A stretch of 21,243 nt of DNA from a virus. Lineage: Duplodnaviria; Heunggongvirae; Uroviricota; Caudoviricetes. The stretch spans positions 1-21,243 of the IMG/VR virus record IMGVR_UViG_2698536657_000004; one strand, written 5' to 3'. Within the stretch, counting starts at the first letter, position 1. The number at the start of each line of letters is the position of its first letter. Positions 828 to 11,569 of the stretch are shown here, piece by piece. The notes beneath the pieces were generated by a model that saw only the letters and a list, made by a program, of their open reading frames with translations, searched no databases and was not told where the DNA came from. A program made the translations under genes and the position numbers.

Positions 828-2000
828 CTAGATTACTTCTGAGATTGCTGTTTTTCCGTCATATTCTGATAAATATGAACCATAGTGTCTAAAAAGCATC
901 TCAGGTCCTTTATGTCCCATTTGACCGGCAAGCCAGAATAAATTTGCCCCTTGGCTGATATGCCTCGTGGCGAAGGTGTGTCTGGTTTGATATGGATTGC
1001 GGTAACGAACGCCAGCTTTTTTAAGTGTTGGGATCCAGGCTTTCTTGCGAATCGCTGCTGAATTAGCCCACGGCTTGCGTGTCTTTGGATCACTGAATAC
1101 AAAATCACTTCTCATCATCGTAAATGATTTCTGGGCCTGTAATGCCATTATGGCTTCACTGTTTAATTCAACTTTTCTGGTACCAGCTTTTGTTTTTGTT
1201 CCCTTTATCACGCCAACGACAGAGGCAACCTGTACGTGAACGGTATGACCAATAAAATCAATATCAGACCAGCGTAATGCACACAATTCTGAGCTTCGAA
1301 GGCCAGTATTGAATGCGAAACAAAAAAGGTTTCTCCATTCCTCATAGATGCAGGCGTTGTAGATAGCGGATGCTTCTGCTGGCGTGAAGGGATCTACTTC
1401 ATAATCGCCAGAATTGATTGCATGATTTACCGCATGGTATCTACTTGCGCTAACCAGCTTTACAGGATTTATTGTTATAAGTCCGTCAGTGACTGCTTCA
1501 TCAACTGCGCTTCTTAAAAATGACAGATTGTTTCTTATGGTCTTCAGTTTTGTCGTTCTTCTTGAAATCCATTTTTTTAATATTGCTGGTGTCAGATCTA
1601 CAACATGTAGCTTATGTAGTTCCGATAATGCGGATACGCATTTTTCATACCCATTTATTGTTGAAGGGGAGAGTTTTCTGTTTTTACAAATTTCCAGATA
1701 TTCATCAAGGTAATCTCTTACTGTTTTATTTTTCCTTACCATTCCAAATAATGCTAATTTTTTTGAGTTTGGAAAATGTTTTGAGAAATCAAAAGAGCCA
1801 TCGACAATCTGATTTTTTATTTCGCCGAGAAGTCGCTCAGCGTACTTAATTCCCTTTGCATTAGCCTCCAGTCTTGGTAAGGGTTCTCTGCAAAGAACCC
1901 CTTTATATGTGAAGGTTACAACTAGTGTAGAGCAATTCTTGTATTGACGAATTGTTATTCCTCTTGGGAGTGGTAAGGATCTTTGTTTTTTCTCGCCCAT
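828..2000 (-). CDS. int: Tyrosine recombinase (phage integrase), 390 aa
   Basis: C-terminal catalytic signature RNPYQTRHTFATRHISQGANLFWLAGQMGHKGPEMLFRHYGSYL (R, HxxR, Y); SD gagg 7 nt upstream of ATG at 2000; transcribed toward the att core as in lambda. Confidence 0.9.
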   Translation of the reverse strand: MGEKKQRSLPLPRGITIRQYKNCSTLVVTFTYKGVLCREPLPRLEANAKGIKYAERLLGEIKNQIVDGSFDFSKHFPNSKKLALFGMVRKNKTVRDYLDEYLEICKNRKLSPSTINGYEKCVSALSELHKLHVVDLTPAILKKWISRRTTKLKTIRNNLSFLRSAVDEAVTDGLITINPVKLVSASRYHAVNHAINSGDYEVDPFTPAEASAIYNACIYEEWRNLFCFAFNTGLRSSELCALRWSDIDFIGHTVHVQVASVVGVIKGTKTKAGTRKVELNSEAIMALQAQKSFTMMRSDFVFSDPKTRKPWANSAAIRKKAWIPTLKKAGVRYRNPYQTRHTFATRHISQGANLFWLAGQMGHKGPEMLFRHYGSYLSEYDGKTAISEVI

Positions 2001-4798: not shown

Positions 4799-5470
4799 CT
4801 ACTCCTTTGCCAGGGATTTACCGGTTAACAGCCACATCAGGTCACAGTTAAGTGCGCTGGCCAGAGGTACTATCTGATCGGCAGGAACTTCGCACACGCC
4901 GCATTCCCAGTCGTTTATGGGGTCGCTGTAGGTGTGAATCATGCGTGCCAGGTCTGCTTCTGTTAAGCCCAGTTTTTTACGAGCGCTTTTGATGCGCGCA
5001 CCAATACTTTCTTCCCGTGGTTCTGGCGCATTTACGCGAATAACAGACGCGCTATCTTTTTCATCCAGCAAAGAAAGCGGATCGCACCCAAGGACGTTTG
5101 CCAGGGGGATAAGCATGCTGATGGTTGGTTCGAATTCTCCGCTCTCCCATTGCAGGATGATCTCTTCATCGAGATCAAGCAGTCTGGCAAGTTCGGTGGT
5201 CGTTAAGCCGCAGGCTTCACGTTGGGCGCGGATTTTTCCAAAAAAGTGACCATACGAAACCATAGCTTTTGCCTCACATAGTTTTTCTGCAAAAATTGAT
5301 GCAGTTTCTTCTGTTTTTTGCAGAGAACGCATCAGGCATCTGATTGCATTATAAACCCTCTCACTTTCTGCTCCGTTTTCTGACATGTAGGAATAGATCA
5401 TTCCAAGCAGCGAACCGCCTTCTTGTATTTGTGCTGCAATTTCATCCATCACCTTAACTGCATGCTTCAT
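4799..5470 (-). CDS. Dual helix-turn-helix (XRE/Cro-C1 type) DNA-binding protein, first gene downstream of the leftward early promoter
   Basis: Two HTH segments (GLTTTELARLLDLDEEIILQWESGE and GLTEADLARMIHTYSDPINDWECG); start placed at ATG 5470 with AGGAGG 5 nt upstream; the track ORF extends to an upstream TTG. Confidence 0.65.
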   Translation of the reverse strand: MKHAVKVMDEIAAQIQEGGSLLGMIYSYMSENGAESERVYNAIRCLMRSLQKTEETASIFAEKLCEAKAMVSYGHFFGKIRAQREACGLTTTELARLLDLDEEIILQWESGEFEPTISMLIPLANVLGCDPLSLLDEKDSASVIRVNAPEPREESIGARIKSARKKLGLTEADLARMIHTYSDPINDWECGVCEVPADQIVPLASALNCDLMWLLTGKSLAKE

Positions 5471-5495
5471 ATGAGCCTCCTGTGGTTTTAATTTT

Positions 5496-5538
5496 ACAAT
5501 AGCCAAAGCGTTTAGTTATGTCAATCGCTATAGCTATG
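5496..5538 (-). promoter_or_regulatory. Candidate pL promoter with overlapping operator oL
   Basis: On the minus strand a perfect -35 TTGACA (5519-5524), 17-nt spacer and -10 TATTGT (5496-5501); adjacent palindrome GCTATAGC inside tcaatcgctatag, a 13-mer repeated at oR. Confidence 0.45.
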
Positions 5539-5646: not shown

Positions 5647-6351
5647 TTATCCGACCCTGTTATACTGGATTGACTGATGAATGAGAACTTTCCCCATTAT
5701 GAATAGATGTTCTTCAGCTGATTCACTTATAAACCATTCCTTGTAGGCCGGATTGTCTGATATAACAGCAAGTTGCATCCCTTGCATTTGTAGGCGTTTG
5801 ATATGGAAGGTGTGCCCAAAAATAAAAATATAGATACCGTCAGTTTCAAAATTTCTGACGGATACGTCGACAAATACCTGATCTCCTGCACACAGAGTAG
5901 GAGCCATGCTGTCGCCATCAACTGTTATCATCTTTATGATATTTGCTGGCCTGCTACAGAACAGGCGTCTTGCAGCATCATGTGAAAATTCTATGGCATG
6001 GACCGTTTCTGCAAAATCTGACACAAGGAATGTTCCCGGCCCTGCGCTGGCTGCTATATCCAGGACCTCAACACGAAAAACATCCTTATCATTTTCCAGT
6101 GGGGAATATGATACCTGTGGTGTCGGATTGCAGGATGTGCTTTCTTCTGGGGTCATAGGACCAACACCGTACGATAGCCACTCGGGGCGCACGTTCAGGA
6201 TATTGGCTATCTCCACAACTTTCCTGGAGCCTGTGGCACCATTAACCAGTTTATTGACGCTCGATTGAGCCATGCCAACCTCTCTGGCCAGTTTTCCCTG
6301 CGAGTATCCGCGGATAGTCATAGCTAACTGTAGCCTGTCTGAAAAGCTCAT
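5647..6351 (-). CDS. cI: CI-type prophage repressor (N-terminal HTH plus C-terminal LexA-like S24 autopeptidase domain)
   Basis: HTH segment QGKLAREVGMAQSSVNKLVNG; S24 motifs GDSMAPTL and HIKRL; start placed at ATG 6351 with AAGGAGG 4 nt upstream; diverges from cro. Confidence 0.85.
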   Translation of the reverse strand: MSFSDRLQLAMTIRGYSQGKLAREVGMAQSSVNKLVNGATGSRKVVEIANILNVRPEWLSYGVGPMTPEESTSCNPTPQVSYSPLENDKDVFRVEVLDIAASAGPGTFLVSDFAETVHAIEFSHDAARRLFCSRPANIIKMITVDGDSMAPTLCAGDQVFVDVSVRNFETDGIYIFIFGHTFHIKRLQMQGMQLAVISDNPAYKEWFISESAEEHLFIMGKVLIHQSIQYNRVG

Positions 6352-6376
6352 AAGTCCTCCTTTTTCTGCCCTTTTA

Positions 6377-6449
6377 GTGTATCGCCTTAGCGATATATAC
6401 ACAAACCGCTTTTTCGTACATTGCAATCGCTTAAATCAATCGCTATAGT
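6377..6449. promoter_or_regulatory. Immunity region oR with candidate pR (rightward) and pRM (leftward)
   Basis: pR: -35 TTGCAA (6421-6426), 17-nt spacer, -10 TATAGT (6444-6449). Palindrome TATCGCcttaGCGATA at 6380-6395. Direct repeats caatcgc inside the pR spacer. The 13-mer tcaatcgctatag is shared with oL. Confidence 0.5.
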
Positions 6450-6474
6450 GAATAAAATCAGGTTGGAGGTCGAT

Positions 6475-6738
6475 ATGAAAAATGAAGGTATAGCCAAGGC
6501 TGTCGATATTGCGGGAAGCCAGATTGCTCTGGCCAGGCGTTGCGGTCGCGCGCAGTCAACAATTTGCGACTGGCTGAATGGGAAGAAAAAAATTTCTCCT
6601 GAATTTGTTCCGTCTCTGGTTAAGGCGGTTGATGGGAAAGTCCAGGCGTATGAATTTCGTCCTGATCTACCGGAGCTTTTCCCACACCCAGGCTTAGCGC
6701 ACACAGAAGATGGAGTGTACGAAGGAGATAAACAGTGA
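6475..6738 (+). CDS. cro: Cro-like repressor of the YdaS HTH family (87 aa)
   Basis: Translation matches the remembered YdaS-type motif pattern; GGAGG 5 nt upstream of ATG 6475; divergent from cI. Confidence 0.8.
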   Translation: MKNEGIAKAVDIAGSQIALARRCGRAQSTICDWLNGKKKISPEFVPSLVKAVDGKVQAYEFRPDLPELFPHPGLAHTEDGVYEGDKQ

Positions 6739-7442
6739 ATACAACAATTTTTACCGACAAAGCATCCATGACCAGCATTGAGATTGCCGAGCTGGTAGGT
6801 AGCCGCCATGACAGTGTGAAGAGAGCAATTGAACGTATTGCTGAACGATGTGTTACCCAACTTCCACCAATGGTGGAAGTTGAGAATAAACAATCACTTA
6901 GTCCTAATAAATATACTAAGGCGTACATCTTCGAAGGCGAACAAGGCAAACGCGACAGCATCATTGTTGTCGCACAGCTTTGCCCTGAATTCACCGCTCG
7001 CCTGGTAGACCGCTGGCGCGAACTGGAAGAACAAATCCGCAGACCAATGAGCCAGATCGAAATGGTTGCTGCAATGGCGCTTGAAGCCGTTCGCCAACAA
7101 AGACGTCTTGAGCAGGTGGAAGAGAAAGTCACCCACGTTACTGAAACCGTCGAGCAAATCAAAAGAGGCACCATACGCGATGGTTATGCAGGCTATCGTC
7201 AGCTGGTGGCGAAAACGGGTATGTCAGATGCGAAATGCCGCAATCTGGTGAACGCATATCAGATCCCTACCGACACCCATGAATTTATGACACCAGATGG
7301 TTTGTTGTCGCGTCGCGCGATTGTTGCAGTAGAACCTTTCATGGCTGCTTTCCGTCACATGATGAGTGAAGCAGAACCACGAGGTACTCGCTGGTATCAC
7401 CCGAAAATGGGACTGTTCCAGGCGCTGGGCTGGCAGGTGTGA
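6735..7442 (+). CDS. Rha-family phage regulatory protein with C-terminal extension (235 aa)
   Basis: N-terminal segment SMTSIEIAELVGSRHDSVKRAIERI typical of Rha domains; GTG start overlapping the cro stop (GTGA), SD aggag 7 nt upstream. Confidence 0.7.
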   Translation: MNTTIFTDKASMTSIEIAELVGSRHDSVKRAIERIAERCVTQLPPMVEVENKQSLSPNKYTKAYIFEGEQGKRDSIIVVAQLCPEFTARLVDRWRELEEQIRRPMSQIEMVAAMALEAVRQQRRLEQVEEKVTHVTETVEQIKRGTIRDGYAGYRQLVAKTGMSDAKCRNLVNAYQIPTDTHEFMTPDGLLSRRAIVAVEPFMAAFRHMMSEAEPRGTRWYHPKMGLFQALGWQV

Positions 7443-7461
7443 TTATGCTCACAGGTAACAC

Positions 7462-7632
7462 ATGCAAGTACTCAATCGCTGGTTCCGTGATGGAAGAGGG
7501 CGTCGCGTCCACGTTATACGCTGGGAGCCTGAAACACAGCGGGTTATTTACCTGCGTGATGGTTATCCGGATGAGTGCTTCAGTCCGTTGTGGCTGTTTC
7601 GTCGTGATTTTGTTGAGTGCGAAGCGCCGTAA
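7462..7632 (+). CDS. Hypothetical small protein (56 aa, MQVLNRWFRDGRGRRVHVIRWEPETQRVIYLRDGYPDECFSPLWLFRRDFVECEAP), below the ORF-track cutoff
   Basis: Hand translation in a different frame from the long track ORF 7439-8287; protein-like composition; ends upstream of a terminator. Confidence 0.4.
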   Translation: MQVLNRWFRDGRGRRVHVIRWEPETQRVIYLRDGYPDECFSPLWLFRRDFVECEAP

Positions 7633-7732
7633 GGCCTGTGCTGTTTACAATATTGATTTCCGGCGGTACACTTTTCTTATAGTGGCAAAATCCACTATCG
7701 GGAGTGAGACCCCGGAATTGATCGAGGCGACA

Positions 7733-7758
7733 AACGACGCGCCAGCGTCTTTTTTGTT
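7733..7758 (+). terminator. Rho-independent terminator (tR1-like) in the rightward early operon
   Basis: Hairpin gacgc-gcca-gcgtc (7736-7749) followed by ttttttg. Confidence 0.6.
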
Positions 7759-7783
7759 GTCAGTGCCTGCGCACACCAGAATT

Positions 7784-7924
7784 ATGGTGGGCTGGGCAGG
7801 GGAACCGAAAGGTTCGCCGGTTTCCTTGATCGCCGGTAGTCTCAACCCTGTCCAGTCCGCCACCAGCGAGATTGAGACCTCCTGTGGTGGATATTGTCAT
7901 TCACCGATCAAGGAGGCTGCCATT
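7784..7924 (+). ncRNA. Candidate structured cis-regulatory 5' leader, copy A, upstream of the second Rha gene
   Basis: 141 nt, aligns without gaps to copy B; nested helices; GAACC-GAAA-GGUUC hairpin at 7802-7815; CCUCC (7878-7882) complementary to the downstream SD GGAGG (7912-7916). Confidence 0.45.
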
Positions 7925-8287
7925 ATGGCTACGATCCCCGCACACCCATACCTCAAAATCGAGGTCGTCAACGGCAGAGCCGTTATATTCTCCCTGTATG
8001 TCGCCTGTCACTTTAAGCGCATGCATAAGAATATCGTCGATCGAATCGAATATCTCAACTGCTCACGCGAATTTCTTACCCGCAACTTTATACCTGGCAC
8101 TTATCGCGCCTATGGCGATTCAGTGCGCGGTTATTACATCACCCGTGATGGTCTGATGATGCTACAGCTAGGGTTAAGTCTGCGCACCATGCGGTACTAC
8201 GAGAGCTGCATTAAAGCACTACATGAGGTTGAAACCTTCCAGGGCCACTCTGCTTTCCGTCGTAATCAACGGGAGGTGCATCAATGA
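7925..8287 (+). CDS. Rha-family phage regulatory protein, divergent paralog (120 aa)
   Basis: Rha-domain start pattern MATIPAHPYLKIEVVNGRAVIFSLYVACHFKRMHKNIVDRI; AAGGAGG 8 nt upstream of ATG 7925; the track ORF extends upstream in frame, alternative start ATG 7784. Confidence 0.55.
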   Translation: MATIPAHPYLKIEVVNGRAVIFSLYVACHFKRMHKNIVDRIEYLNCSREFLTRNFIPGTYRAYGDSVRGYYITRDGLMMLQLGLSLRTMRYYESCIKALHEVETFQGHSAFRRNQREVHQ

Positions 8288-8442
8288 AGCGCCACCAGCA
8301 TATTGATTCTGCAATTCCGGAACGTTACACTGTGAAGGCACCTTATAAAGCGGGTGCCGGGATTGGCGTCCTGAAATTGATTACTGAGCAAAACCGCGCT
8401 CATGCGGTTTTTTCGTACCATGAGCATTGCTACGCCCAAATT

Positions 8443-8583
8443 ATGGTGGGGCGTACAGGGCCGACTTCGGTCGGGCCGGGTTCGGTAGTCTCCGGTAACG
8501 CCAACCCTGTACGTCTCACCACCTCTGTGATTGGCGTCCCATGTGGTGAGTTTTCTAAAAAACTGACTACCGGGGCTGTCACC
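8443..8583 (+). ncRNA. Candidate structured cis-regulatory 5' leader, copy B, upstream of the third Rha gene
   Basis: Same length and conserved blocks as copy A; hairpin here is CCGAC-UUCG-GUCGG (8461-8474); GUCCC (8536-8540) complementary to GGGGC (8572-8576) at the ribosome-binding region. Confidence 0.45.
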
Positions 8584-9147
8584 ATGACTACTCTCCCAAC
8601 CCTCGTTCAACCTGAAATTGCCATTGTTAATGGGCAGGCTGTTACAACTTCATTGGCTGTTGCCGACTTCTTCTCCAAACGTCATGACGATGTTCTGAAA
8701 AAGATCCGTATCTTGGATTGTTCGTCAGAGTTTTGTGCCCGCAATTTTGCGGAGACATCGATTTCGCTAAATCAACCGAATGGTGGTACACGCAAACTTC
8801 CCTGCTACCAAATAACCCGCGACGGTTTTGCGTTTCTTGCTATGGGCTTCACTGGTAAACGTGCAGCCCGGTTTAAAGAGGCATACATCAATGCTTTTAA
8901 CCAGATGGAGAGAAGCTTATCAGGAGCTGGCGCGGCTGACATGTCATCTGTCGCACAAAATGCCAGAGGCGTATACCTGCATTTGCGTGAAATCCATCAA
9001 ATCTGGAAAAGCCAGCTTTATCCCATGCTTAAGGCCGTTGAATCTCCGCTGGCTAGCAAACTGTACGACCGTGTAGGTGATGCTGTTTTTGGGGCCGCAC
9101 TTGTTGATTCCAGACTGAACGGTTCTGACAAGGAGGTGCGCCCATGA
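8584..9147 (+). CDS. Rha-family phage regulatory protein (187 aa)
   Basis: Canonical Rha-domain pattern IAIVNGQAVTTSLAVADFFSKRHDDVLKKIRIL...YQITRDGFAFLAMGFTGKRAARFKEAYINAFNQME; start placed at ATG 8584, alternative in-frame ATG 8443. Confidence 0.65.
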   Translation: MTTLPTLVQPEIAIVNGQAVTTSLAVADFFSKRHDDVLKKIRILDCSSEFCARNFAETSISLNQPNGGTRKLPCYQITRDGFAFLAMGFTGKRAARFKEAYINAFNQMERSLSGAGAADMSSVAQNARGVYLHLREIHQIWKSQLYPMLKAVESPLASKLYDRVGDAVFGAALVDSRLNGSDKEVRP

Positions 9148-9368
9148 TTCGCCGCGTCGTTAATTTCCTGTATCACCGATACAACCGTTGCCCCCGTGTG
9201 GGGCAGTGGTTCACCACCAGCAACGGACACGTTCTGCGGGTTTGCCTGGTTAATACAGAAAGCCAGAAGGTTGTCTGTCAGGTTCAGGGGCGTACTCATA
9301 CCCTGAGTTATCCGCTGGTGGCGTTTCAGTCCGGAAAAATGTTTAAGCGTCTGGGAGGTGCCGTGTGA
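9144..9368 (+). CDS. Hypothetical protein (74 aa)
   Basis: AAGGAGG 7 nt upstream; ATG overlaps the upstream stop (ATGA). Confidence 0.6.
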   Translation: MIRRVVNFLYHRYNRCPRVGQWFTTSNGHVLRVCLVNTESQKVVCQVQGRTHTLSYPLVAFQSGKMFKRLGGAV

Positions 9369-9691
9369 TTTGTAAATTAACGCCTGAAAAAAAAGCGCTC
9401 AATAAGAGTTCAAGGCTGCTTTTATCTTATTTGCAAAATGCTTCAGGTGAGCAGGGTTTTGTGGAAATTTCTCTTCTGGAATTGTCCGCAGCTCTTGGCT
9501 TATGCCGTAACACAATCACAAACGCTACGGCATTACTCGAAGATCTTGGCGTTGTCACTGTTTCCAGGGGGAGAAGGAATAAAACGAAAAGTGGAAAGGA
9601 AAGTGCAGGGAAAAATATTTACAGGTTGATCCAGTCAGCGACCAATAATAAGGACTACGCCATAGTCATGCCGCGTAAGGAGGTCGTATGA
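9365..9691 (+). CDS. Helix-turn-helix DNA-binding protein (108 aa), possibly replication-associated
   Basis: HTH segment LLELSAALGLCRNTITNATALLEDLGVV; GTG start overlapping the upstream stop (GTGA) with SD gggagg; sits directly upstream of the replication genes. Confidence 0.6.
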   Translation: MICKLTPEKKALNKSSRLLLSYLQNASGEQGFVEISLLELSAALGLCRNTITNATALLEDLGVVTVSRGRRNKTKSGKESAGKNIYRLIQSATNNKDYAIVMPRKEVV

Positions 9692-10680
9692 GTCGTTACG
9701 CTCCTACACCGGAGGTTATGGCTATTGGTCAAATTAATATTTCCGGCAATGTCACACCGCCATCCTGGTGGAAACATATCCAGCTACCCAGTGGGCGTCC
9801 AGATGCGACTGCCATTGCGCTGCTTTCAGAGATTGTTTACTGGTATCGCCCGACAGAAGTCAGGGATGAGCATACAGGGGCTTTACTGGGATATCGCAAG
9901 CGTTTTCAGAGTGACAAGCTGCAAAGAAGCTATCAGGCGTTTGCTGAGCAGTTTGGCTTTGGGAAAAGGGAAACCGCAGATGCGCTGAAGCGTCTTCGTG
10001 ATGCCGGGTTTATTACTCTGGATTTACGCACGGTGGAAATGCTCGATGGGGTGAAATGCAGCAATATTTTGTTTGTCGGGATCAACCCACAGGCAATTGC
10101 TGCCATCACCACACCTTCTTCTGTTTCGCCAGAAAGTAACAGCAATAATGCAATCAGCGATACAGCTATTACGTTAAAACGGAACACCCCCCAACGTCAT
10201 AACGGAACAGGGGATACGCCGAATGTTGATACAAATACAGAGATTACTACAGAGATTACAACGGAGACTAAAAACACTATTGGCGCATCCGCTGACGCGT
10301 CTGCACCAGCGCGTTCTGCCAGACAGGAATATTCACCGGAATTTGAGCAGGCCTGGCAGGAATACCCCAAACGTGCTGGTGGTAATTCCAAGTCAGCAGC
10401 TTTCAAAGCCTGGAAAGCCCGAATCAGGGAAGATGTGACACCAGAAACCATGCTCAACGGTGTGAAACGCTATGCCGCCTGGGTGCGTGTCTCAGGAAAT
10501 ATCGGCACCCAGTTTGTGAAGCAGGCGTCGACGTTCTTTGGCCCCGATAGACACTTTGACGAATCCTGGCAACAGCCTGCCGTTCCCGGAGGTGGGCGGC
10601 AAAGACAGGTCGATGTTCTGTCTGGCCTTGGTGCCATGTCTGACAAATTCGGTAAATCCAGCGACAAACTGACATTCTGA
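9688..10680 (+). CDS. Replication initiation / replisome-organizer protein (lambda O-like), 330 aa
   Basis: N-terminal DNA-binding region and C-terminal conserved phage block EFEQAWQEYPKRAGGNSKSAAFKAWKARI; internal TEITTEITTETK repeat; AAGGAGG upstream of ATG; immediately precedes helicase loader and helicase. Confidence 0.75.
   Translation: MSRYAPTPEVMAIGQINISGNVTPPSWWKHIQLPSGRPDATAIALLSEIVYWYRPTEVRDEHTGALLGYRKRFQSDKLQRSYQAFAEQFGFGKRETADALKRLRDAGFITLDLRTVEMLDGVKCSNILFVGINPQAIAAITTPSSVSPESNSNNAISDTAITLKRNTPQRHNGTGDTPNVDTNTEITTEITTETKNTIGASADASAPARSARQEYSPEFEQAWQEYPKRAGGNSKSAAFKAWKARIREDVTPETMLNGVKRYAAWVRVSGNIGTQFVKQASTFFGPDRHFDESWQQPAVPGGGRQRQVDVLSGLGAMSDKFGKSSDKLTF
10237..10271 (+). repeat. 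Three tandem 12-bp direct repeats (tacagagattac, third degenerate) inside the O-like gene; candidate origin iterons
   Basis: Directly visible repeat; lambda places its ori iterons inside O. Confidence 0.3.
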
Positions 10681-10690
10681 GGTGACCACG

Positions 10691-11569
10691 ATGATGGCGG
10701 CTAACCAGCGTGAAAAACAAACAAGACTACAGGCGCGAATGGATGAACTACGGTCTGAGATGGCGTTTGCGAAGTCAGGGGAAAAACCATGGCCTTATCG
10801 TTCATGCCTGATACGAGAAGGACGTGGATATTGCGAAAAACATGGCGAATATCACACGCATACTCTTGTGTGGGGTGATCGTAATGGCGAGGACAGAGAG
10901 AAAGTCTCACGTTGCCCAGATTGTCTGAGTGCTGAAATAAACGATGTGATGATGGAGTTGTCGTCCCTGAAGGCGGAAGAACTGACTGATAACGCCGGAA
11001 TTGCCCTGCGTTTTCGGGACTGCGAGTTTGATAATTATCTGGAGGTTAATCCTGACGCAGCCAGAAATCTTGCGGCCTGTCGCCGTTATGCGGAGAACTG
11101 GCCGGATATGCTGGAGAACGGTACCAGTCTTGTTATGACCGGCAGTTGCGGCACCGGGAAAAATCATCTGGCGGTATCAATGACAAAACATATCATCCGC
11201 AACTATCTCGCCAGTGTTGAGATTACTGACGTGATGCGTCTTACCCGCGCGGTGAAAAACTGCTGGCGGAATGACAGTGAAAAAACAGCGGATGACGTCA
11301 TTGAGCATTATGCGTCACTGGATTTGCTGATTATCGACGAAGTCGGTGTTCAGTTTGGCAGTGTGGCTGAAATGGCCATTTTGCAGGAAATCATCAATGC
11401 CCGCTACGAAAGTATCTTGCCCACCATTCTGATTAGTAACCTTTCACCGGAAGAGTTGTGGGCGTTCATCAGTCCCCGAATTGCCGACAGGATCACCGAT
11501 GGCGGGCGCAACTGGTTGTCGTTTAACTGGGCCAGCTACCGTTCTCGTATCGGAGGTGTGGCCGCATGA
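10691..11569 (+). CDS. DnaC/IstB-like AAA+ helicase loader with N-terminal Cys/His cluster
   Basis: Walker A GSCGTGKNHLAVS, Walker B LLIIDEVG; N-terminal C-x9-C-x2-H-x3-H...C-x2-C; SD gaggtga 5 nt upstream of ATG 10691. Confidence 0.85.
   Translation: MMAANQREKQTRLQARMDELRSEMAFAKSGEKPWPYRSCLIREGRGYCEKHGEYHTHTLVWGDRNGEDREKVSRCPDCLSAEINDVMMELSSLKAEELTDNAGIALRFRDCEFDNYLEVNPDAARNLAACRRYAENWPDMLENGTSLVMTGSCGTGKNHLAVSMTKHIIRNYLASVEITDVMRLTRAVKNCWRNDSEKTADDVIEHYASLDLLIIDEVGVQFGSVAEMAILQEIINARYESILPTILISNLSPEELWAFISPRIADRITDGGRNWLSFNWASYRSRIGGVAA

Follow-up and report, generated by a model that had tools for sequence, protein, structure and literature searches.

Tandem isrK-C4-type RNA cassettes with different pairing codes and Rha-domain cargo in a lambdoid, Shiga-toxin-phage-like prophage

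Introduction

An "IsrK-C4 immunity system" akin to the systems of P4, P1, P7 and N15 has been noted in some lambdoid prophages; the seqA and CI RNA of P4 are structural homologues of IsrK and C4, and similar RNA-based systems are present in P1, P7 and N15 (PMC3632133). The isrK-orf45-anrP locus of Gifsy-1 has been characterised experimentally: the isrK promoter drives the operon, and expression of AnrP induces Gifsy-1 (PMC4825925). The record of phage P1 gives the order promoter P1c4, a1, b1, c4, a2, b2, icd and ant1, and its annotation states that Ant antagonises the C1 repressor. In P4, the RNA ends transcription of the replication operon prematurely and does not block translation of an anti-repressor. 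The present analysis concerns IMG/VR virus record IMGVR_UViG_2698536657_000004 (Caudoviricetes), positions 1 to 21,243; this whole stretch of 21,243 nucleotides (nt) is called the window. Its subject is a locus in which three genes for Rha-domain proteins, here termed Rha1, Rha2 and Rha3, follow a cro-like gene.

What the window contains is an RNA-controlled switch of a known type, presumably governing anti-repressors and arranged in a new way. Its hallmarks are two orthogonal tandem units in the early right operon of a lambdoid prophage that resembles Shiga toxin (Stx) phages, Rha-domain genes that are gated directly without an icd-like open reading frame (ORF), and an ungated Rha/Ant-like gene upstream. 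The reading preferred here, to which a probability of about three in four is assigned, is that Rha1 is coupled to cro and is followed by two tandem RNA-controlled cassettes of the P1 immI and Gifsy-1 isrK type, which carry Rha2 and Rha3. An earlier note on this DNA described the three genes and overlooked the defining feature of the locus, which is a pair of antisense RNAs with different specificities.

Organization of the RNA leaders

The inter-gene stretches of 480 and 300 nt are occupied, each by one isrK-like RNA and one C4 antisense RNA. The Rfam gathering scores are 45 for C4 (RF01695) and 50 for isrK (RF01394), and all four matches in the window are full length and on the plus strand. 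Cassette 1, also on this strand, begins with a promoter detected by a promoter scan (TTTACA-17-TACACT, 7644-7672). It is followed by isrK-like leader 1 (7679-7755, 61.4 bits), which includes an intrinsic terminator found by a terminator scan (7736-7755), by C4 RNA 1 (7780-7867, 83.4 bits, model positions 1-87) and by its cargo gene Rha2 (7925-8287). Cassette 2 repeats this order on the plus strand. Its promoter (TTGATT-17-TACACT, 8303-8331) was read from the sequence and precedes isrK-like leader 2 (8338-8414, 59.4 bits) with a terminator (8392-8414) within a terminator-like site from the same scan (8385-8414), C4 RNA 2 (8439-8526, 82.3 bits, model positions 1-87) and the cargo gene Rha3 (8584-9147).

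The two promoters align with each other and with the P1c4 promoter of P1 and the isrK promoter of Gifsy-1. The -10 element ends 7 nt ahead of the isrK match in both cassettes, and both isrK elements end in an intrinsic-terminator-like hairpin with a run of T residues. Sub-threshold matches to the Rfam family c4-a1b1 overlap both leaders (39.7 bits in leader 1). The cI-cro operator palindrome TATCGC-N4-GCGATA was searched for at the cassette promoters and none was found, which fits constitutive synthesis of the RNAs and is a difference from P1 and P7.

The leaders fold more stably than shuffled sequence, with z values of -5.5 and -4.4. In 22 diverse C4 sequences the consensus fold consists of 27 pairs, 11 of them with compensatory double changes, and has a single broken cell. 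The closing stem, which encloses two hairpins, is kept by compensatory changes, and the variable positions are those of the unpaired loop and the linker. In control of the P1/P7 type, RNase P frees C4 from the leader transcript; of the corresponding features, a tRNA-like closing stem and a 3' CCACC are visible in the C4 RNAs of the window.

The window cassettes share with P1 the order of elements from promoter to b2, and together with the Gifsy-1 isrK locus they align with P1 immI from the promoter to the first start codon with 70% mean column identity. The segments of the window assigned to a1, b1, a2 and b2 were inferred independently and coincide with the sites so annotated in P1. In P1 and P7, as in the window, b2 overlaps the Shine-Dalgarno sequence. 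The window differs from P1 and P7 in that the next ORF downstream of b2 is already the Rha gene, no icd-like coupling ORF intervening, and in that the early right operon of a lambdoid prophage contains two tandem units.

The Gifsy-1 locus likewise has isrK, C4 and c4-a1b1 immediately upstream of STM2616/AnrP. It is a single unit, whereas the window has two, and it lies after the Q gene, whereas the window cassettes lie between cro and the replication genes. A further difference is that orf45 of Gifsy-1 ends at the anrP start (ATGA), whereas the equivalent frame in the window runs into the Rha gene.

Pairing codes and covariation

In cassette 1, alignment to P1 places a1 (GTGAGAC) at 7704-7710 and b1 (TGATCGAGG) at 7719-7727. 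C4-1 carries the recognition loop b' (TTTCCTTGATCG, 7821-7832) and the linker a' (GTCTCAA, 7839-7845). Downstream are its targets a2 (TTGAGAC, 7872-7878) and b2 (CGATCAAGGAGG, 7905-7916), all on the plus strand. The 12-nt loop UUUCCUUGAUCG is complementary to CGAUCAAGGAGG of b2 at 12 of 12 positions and also to UGAUCGAGG in the leader, and the linker GUCUCAA is complementary both to the downstream UUGAGAC and to the leader segment GUGAGAC. Rha2 has b2 as its Shine-Dalgarno sequence; the site contains AAGGAGG, 9 nt before ATG 7925.

In cassette 2, also on the plus strand, the corresponding elements are a1 (TTGGCGT, 8363-8369), b1 (TGATTACTGAG, 8378-8388), b' of C4-2 (GTTCGGTAGTCT, 8480-8491), a' (ACGCCAA, 8498-8504) and the C4-2 targets a2 (TTGGCGT, 8531-8537) and b2 (TGACTACCGGGG, 8564-8575). 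Here the loop GUUCGGUAGUCU is complementary over 10 contiguous bases to GACUACCGGG, just upstream of ATG 8584, and the linker ACGCCAA is complementary to UUGGCGU at two positions. The b2 site lies over the ribosome-binding region of Rha3, 9 nt before the ATG. Placement of b2 over the ribosome-binding site recurs in the 23 distinct loops first examined.

The a-type code of cassette 2 (ACGCCAA/TTGGCGT) is identical to that of Gifsy-1. The two window cassettes differ in C4 specificity, as P1 and P7 do. Duplex energies, calculated from unpaired segments only since inclusion of stem bases gives a spurious cross-pairing of -19.5 kcal/mol, are -16.4 (cassette 1) and -15.3 kcal/mol (cassette 2) for b' with its own b2, and -5.2 and -7.5 for the cross-combinations. 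For a' with a2 they are -9.1 and -10.5 within cassettes 1 and 2, and -2.8 and -0.5 across them. With self and cross energies thus separated, the two units should not cross-regulate. Further C4 targets proposed by a scan of the whole window that allowed G-U pairs, for example at 6781 inside Rha1, were rejected, as the scan gave dozens of chance matches.

Covariation was assessed in 143 cassettes, collected by scanning viral contigs twice and from related loci; among them are 114 distinct leaders and 70 distinct (a', b') codes. Over these codes, b' and b2 of one cassette have a longest Watson-Crick run of 8.4 on average, against 4.6 with other cassettes; for b' and b1 the means are 7.1 and 4.4, and for a' they are about 6.0 and 4.1-4.2. 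The observed means of self-complementarity were reached in 0 of 10,000 permutations for either element at either site, a result that overstates independence, because the cassettes were fetched by their C4 pattern and are kin by descent.

Joint variation is seen directly in close relatives. A near-identical prophage (L006) has the same Rha2 protein and a different code, its b1, b' and b2 being TGTTACAGG, CCTGTAACG and TGTTACAGG in place of the window's TGATCGAGG, CCTTGATCG and CGATCAAGG. A third locus (L003) has a third code, and b1, b' and b2 vary jointly among the three. The b loops are non-identical within all 10 distinct arrays, but this was dropped as evidence; the chance of two leaders sharing a loop is just 0.036, and the observation proves nothing.

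The Rha proteins and their proposed control

The earlier note had claimed three consecutive Rha-domain genes directly downstream of cro. All three ORFs are present (6735-7442, 7925-8287 and 8584-9147). In a search with the Pfam hidden Markov model Phage_pRha (PF09669, gathering score 29.9 bits) all three proteins pass, including the first and second, on which the claim hinged: Rha1 scores 35.8, Rha2 31.0 and Rha3 97.0 bits, Rha1 and Rha2 clearing the threshold narrowly. With NCBIfam TIGR02681 (cut-off 45.95 bits), Rha3 scores 90.6 and Rha2, below the cut-off, 38.1, and Rha1 gives no match. The position of the genes is borne out by their neighbours, a repressor with helix-turn-helix (HTH) and S24 domains and the cro-like gene on one side, and O-like, DnaC-like and DnaB-like replication genes on the other.

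The second gene had been regarded as the highly diverged member. This does not hold: by BLASTP, Rha2 is 36% identical to Rha3 over 109 amino acids (E 2e-19), Rha1 is 29% identical to Rha3 over 93 amino acids (E 1e-4), and no similarity between Rha1 and Rha2 was detected. By sequence comparison Rha2 and Rha3 are clear paralogues, and the outlier is the distantly related Rha1. The description as an array of Rha paralogues is thus right as to three Rha-domain genes, but these are not equivalent: Rha2 and Rha3 are cassette-borne, and Rha1 is distant and coupled to cro.

Rha1 (plus strand), a Rha/Ant-like protein of 235 amino acids, starts at a GTG that overlaps the stop of cro and has a match to PHROG 63, "anti-repressor Ant" (4e-44). 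An Rfam search of 6300-6735 at E up to 1 yielded no RNA match upstream of it. Rha1 is probably expressed with cro, to which it would be translationally coupled, and has no RNA gate. Rha2, of 120 amino acids, consists of the Rha domain alone. Rha3, of 187 amino acids, has a Rha domain and a C-terminal domain and matches PHROG 821 (6e-103) and PHROG 63 (4e-17).

A search for homologues of Rha2 found 25 relatives only, close and enterobacterial, too shallow a set for a good model; the AlphaFold2 model from an 8-sequence alignment has a pLDDT of 63, and Foldseek found nothing in the PDB below E = 1. Sequence searches of the PDB with Rha1 and Rha3 gave no matches. The C-terminal part of Rha3 (residues ~125-175, …IHQIWKSQLYPMLK…) resembles, by eye, the C-terminus of a Bro-N cargo protein in another cassette (L106, …INEIWRAQLMPALEK…), which suggests a shared C-terminal domain shuffled among different N-terminal domains.

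Rha-domain proteins follow the same leader in 63 cassettes, about half of those with called cargo. Other cargo proteins belong to the P22_AR_N, Bro-N, KilA-N and ORF6N families, the last including AnrP of Gifsy-1, and to the P4-type Derepression family, and there are various small proteins. The P4 epsilon-type Derepression proteins are a point of likeness to P4. In single loci, the isrK-C4 leader precedes a SymE-type toxin (L021) and a P4-epsilon-like protein of the Derepression family (L047). One RNA family links prophage cassettes and satellite immunity.

In the proposed mechanism each cassette would be transcribed from its own sigma-70 promoter. The 77-nt isrK-like leader would carry the decoy sites a1 and b1 and end at the intrinsic terminator, and read-through transcripts would contain the 88-nt tRNA-like C4 RNA, then a2 and b2, the latter on the Shine-Dalgarno sequence, and then the Rha gene. 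As judged from experiments on P1/P7 and Gifsy-1, C4 would be made constitutively in the lysogen and pair with b2, blocking translation of Rha2 and Rha3. The short isrK RNA, bearing a copy of the target, would titrate C4 and release translation, and the Rha proteins would then act as anti-repressor-type effectors that push the prophage towards lytic growth. On the same analogy, the differing codes would let each cassette be regulated independently and silence only incoming cassettes of the same code. Their position makes it most likely that Rha2 and Rha3 are effectors of the anti-repressor type whose translation is held off by the C4 RNAs. The regulatory or interference role that the earlier note had suggested for the Rha genes is rated plausible.

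Several observations weigh against this reading, in addition to the kinship of the sampled cassettes. The cassette 2 promoter is weak by consensus, with 8 of 12 positions, under the scan threshold of 9. No Rha protein of the window is homologous to an experimentally characterised anti-repressor: BLASTP gave E values of 0.41 for P1 Ant1 with Rha1 and 0.19 for Gifsy-1 AnrP with Rha3, neither of which indicates homology. AnrP equals Rha3 in length (187 amino acids) but is an unrelated ORF6N protein, and P1 Ant1 matches PF03374 (ANT/KilAC), which none of the three window Rha proteins does. The "anti-repressor" labels in PHROG are annotations only. The cI-like repressor has an S24 self-cleavage domain, and there is no obvious need of an anti-repressor. 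The open frame of the leaders and the ATG at 8284, described in the next section, belong to the same side.

One alternative is that control runs mainly in reverse, as has been proposed for Gifsy-1: the full leader folds into a translationally inactive form, the short isrK RNA activates Rha in trans and C4 is no free-standing repressor. The minimum-free-energy fold of leader 1 does pair b1 in cis with the C4 loop; in Gifsy-1 the same helix is supported by compensatory mutations, and IsrK supplied in trans raised anrP translation about 140-fold (PMC4825925). On the other hand, the P1 annotation and Citron and Schuster 1990, as cited in PMC7313666 and PMC3632133, have processed C4 repress at a2/b2, and a processed species of about 80 nt, STnc1160, exists in Gifsy-1 (PMC4825925, PMC7067206). 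The two models are also compatible, since isrK can act by titrating C4. Reverse control is considered somewhat unlikely.

A second alternative, given a similar minority chance, concerns the proteins: the Rha proteins may be DNA-binding transcription regulators, for example activators in the lysis-lysogeny decision, and not anti-repressors that bind a repressor. Rha2, as a bare 120-amino-acid domain, has no partner-binding extension, and the S24 cleavage domain of the prophage's own repressor points the same way. Against this stand the proven or annotated anti-repressors and derepressors that occupy the same leader slot elsewhere (PMC4825925), and the matches of Rha1 and Rha3 to PHROG 63.

Gene starts and the Ash domain

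The Rha/Ash proteins that lie next to cI in Stx phages (types Eru6, Eru7 and Eru9) are the same genes at the same position as in the window, and in the paper describing them Ash is treated as a protein domain of unknown function (PMC8951638). Gene callers and PGAP annotate two long ORFs here, 7439-8287 (282 amino acids) and 8284-9147 (287 amino acids), as Ash plus Rha or "ash family protein". Pfam Phage_ASH (PF10554) matches nt 7673-7948 and 8326-8604 with 49.2 and 39.3 bits, and the profiles of PHROG 995 and 821 extend N-terminally beyond the Rha part by about 100-143 positions. That these ORFs are true two-domain Ash-Rha genes is improbable. The Phage_ASH match begins at the -10 element, takes in isrK and C4, and stops at the Shine-Dalgarno sequence and start codon; in other words, it coincides exactly with the RNA leader.

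Codon periodicity is present in the Rha coding sequence and absent from the leader. In 19 distinct cassettes with 120-amino-acid cargo, substitutions per site at the three codon positions are 0.30/0.27/0.73 in the coding sequence. In the same frame of the leader they are 0.84/0.89/0.69, with no third-position excess, and the family with cargo of 181-187 amino acids behaves alike. A Shine-Dalgarno sequence and an ATG are conserved at the short start in all 23 distinct loops first examined. The ORF 7439-8287 moreover overlaps, in a different frame, the conserved DUF4222 gene. Because the Ash match is the RNA leader, the leader lacks codon periodicity and the short start keeps its Shine-Dalgarno sequence and ATG, it is concluded that Rha2 truly starts at 7925 and Rha3 at 8584, the Ash part being translated RNA leader. 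This differs from the view taken in PMC8951638, in that the Ash region of the window is an isrK-C4 leader without a coding signature.

In the window, the C4 ATGs at 7784 and 8443 open the frames of Rha2 and Rha3, and these frames continue into both genes. In 22 of 80 distinct leaders, and also in Gifsy-1 (PMC4825925), the cargo is in a different frame from the C4 ATG, which speaks against the long ORFs.

Other observations favour the long ORFs. The leader is stop-free in the Rha frame in 59 of the 80 distinct leaders, as against 28 and 3 for the other two frames. ATG 8284 overlaps the Rha2 stop and is preceded by a strong ribosome-binding site, GGGAGGTG, and the equivalent orf45 is translated in Gifsy-1, coupled to anrP (PMC4825925). 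In a weaker form of this explanation, the peptide is irrelevant: ribosomes on transcripts from PR would cross the leader, melting the isrK terminator and bypassing C4. Read-through translation on PR-derived transcripts is a possible reason for the open leader frame and for ATG 8284. The two isrK terminators may also be tR1-like checkpoints on PR transcription into the replication genes, a possibility only.

The frame of ATG 8284 traverses all of leader 2 into Rha3. The end of Rha2 (8272-8290) repeats that of Rha3 (9132-9150): both read GGAGGTGC and are followed by an ATG overlapping the stop codon. In an Escherichia coli relative (L001), PGAP flags the homologue of cassette 1 (L001 3494-4081) as a pseudogene "missing N-terminus".

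The simplest view, in which three Rha paralogues occupy the cII position as transcription regulators, are co-expressed from PR and are separated by functionless spacers, is very improbable. All three proteins do pass Pfam pRha, all genes are co-oriented with cro and PGAP names homologues "Rha family transcriptional regulator", but four RNA matches above the Rfam threshold lie in the spacers together with two promoters and two terminators, covariation ties the targets to the C4 loops, the C4 fold has compensatory support and Rha1 is not detectably like Rha2.

Distribution of cassettes and arrays

The leader was found at 201 places in 198 phage records, and the family reaches Pseudomonas, other Enterobacterales and some Betaproteobacteria. 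Copy number varies among related prophages, a comparison that the earlier note had proposed. One E. coli relative (L002) has a single RNA-led unit after Rha1, two others (L001 and L003) have two, and a viral contig (L061) has three. The three cassettes of the last recur with a 656-nt period (9710-11209, minus strand), each with a 120-amino-acid, Rha-only cargo and each with a different loop. Four further loci (L111, L048, L038 and L097) are grouped with it, and the 120-amino-acid unit appears to be the stackable module.

The array had also been called unusual. It is a minority arrangement, but it is not unique: a cassette is directly followed by a second leader in 88 of 5,426 complete E. coli genomes (~1.6%), and about 11 of 140 leader-bearing IMG/VR contigs contain at least two units within 2 kb. 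A 961-nt probe that covers cassette 1 and the second leader is matched in some part by 1,217 of the 5,426 genomes. The exact Rha trio is absent from complete E. coli genomes above ~90% identity. The exact 287-amino-acid ORF is indexed in 75 assembly blocks, and the four loci examined share an identical architecture.

Neighbouring genes of the prophage

The cI-like repressor gene (5647-6351, minus strand) is divergent from the cro-like gene (6475-6738, plus strand). The repressor, of 234 amino acids in identical loci, matches Pfam Peptidase_S24 (2.5e-17) and HTH_3. The cro-like HTH protein belongs to the YdaS_toxin/HTH_3 family (Pfam YdaS_toxin, 1.7e-15) and is called with 87 amino acids in four identical loci (L004-L007). 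A promoter scan places a PR-like promoter before it at 6421-6449. Between Rha1 and cassette 1 is the small DUF4222 gene (7462-7632, plus strand; 56 amino acids; PHROG 1343, 3e-32; PF13973 on the identical L004 gene). The array ends with an ORF of 74 amino acids (9144-9368, plus strand; PHROG 1153, 5.5e-43), the start of which overlaps the stop of Rha3. The O-like, DnaC-like and DnaB-like replication genes follow downstream.

The replication initiator appears as two overlapping ORFs, 9365-9691 with the HTH-containing N-terminal part and 9688-10680 (330 amino acids, without a Pfam match). The two-ORF form is identical in L004-L007, and the E. coli relative L001 has a single gene of 303 amino acids at the same position. 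The first gene leftward of cI (4799-5506, minus strand) encodes a double-HTH protein of PHROG 4836, "CII-like regulator". Just upstream of it (5496-5538) are a strong promoter-like site, TTGACA-17-TATTGT, and sequences that resemble the half-sites of the cI-cro operator.

The window is Stx-phage-like in its Q gene, methylase, three tRNAs and NanS-p-like esterase, and it has 85-90% DNA identity to Stx-phage records. The three tRNA genes (anticodons CAT, TCG and TCT; 16324-16573) come after the Q gene and DNA methylase, as in Shiga-toxin phages. The interval 17266-17769 is presumably the place where stx would sit, and its sole ORF of at least 90 amino acids encodes a TerB-domain protein. A full-length match to the small RNA family STnc100 (157 bits, 17996-18208) lies just upstream of the NanS-p-like sialate esterase gene (18417-20372). 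At the other end, a truncated integrase fragment (Arm-DNA-bind_3, 17-544) adjoins a complete tyrosine integrase gene (828-2000, minus strand); this pair may indicate where the prophage ends next to what remains of another element.

Implications

In the open-access literature searched, no description was found of tandem units with different codes, nor of the Ash domain as an RNA leader. A 2025 review still lists P1 c4 and Salmonella IsrK separately (PMC12197685), and the present comparison links these two literatures. It also points to an annotation problem, in that the "Ash family protein", the Pfam Ash domain and the N-termini of two PHROG profiles are a translated RNA leader.

Between prophages that are otherwise nearly identical, the RNA segments that carry the code are exchanged together with their targets. 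It may be speculated, with the odds clearly against it, that the tandem cassettes form an RNA-coded immunity array, in which a resident C4 silences in trans any intruding phage or satellite with an anti-repressor or derepressor cassette of the same two-part (a, b) code. If true, the stacking of different codes would widen the set of intruders unable to switch the prophage on. At least 70 codes re-assorted onto conserved cargo would then be a fast-evolving, barcode-like layer of conflict between phages and between phages and satellites.

The vague description of three regulators is replaced by a concrete and testable mechanism in a Shiga-toxin-phage-like prophage. In Shiga-toxin phages, the control of induction determines toxin release.

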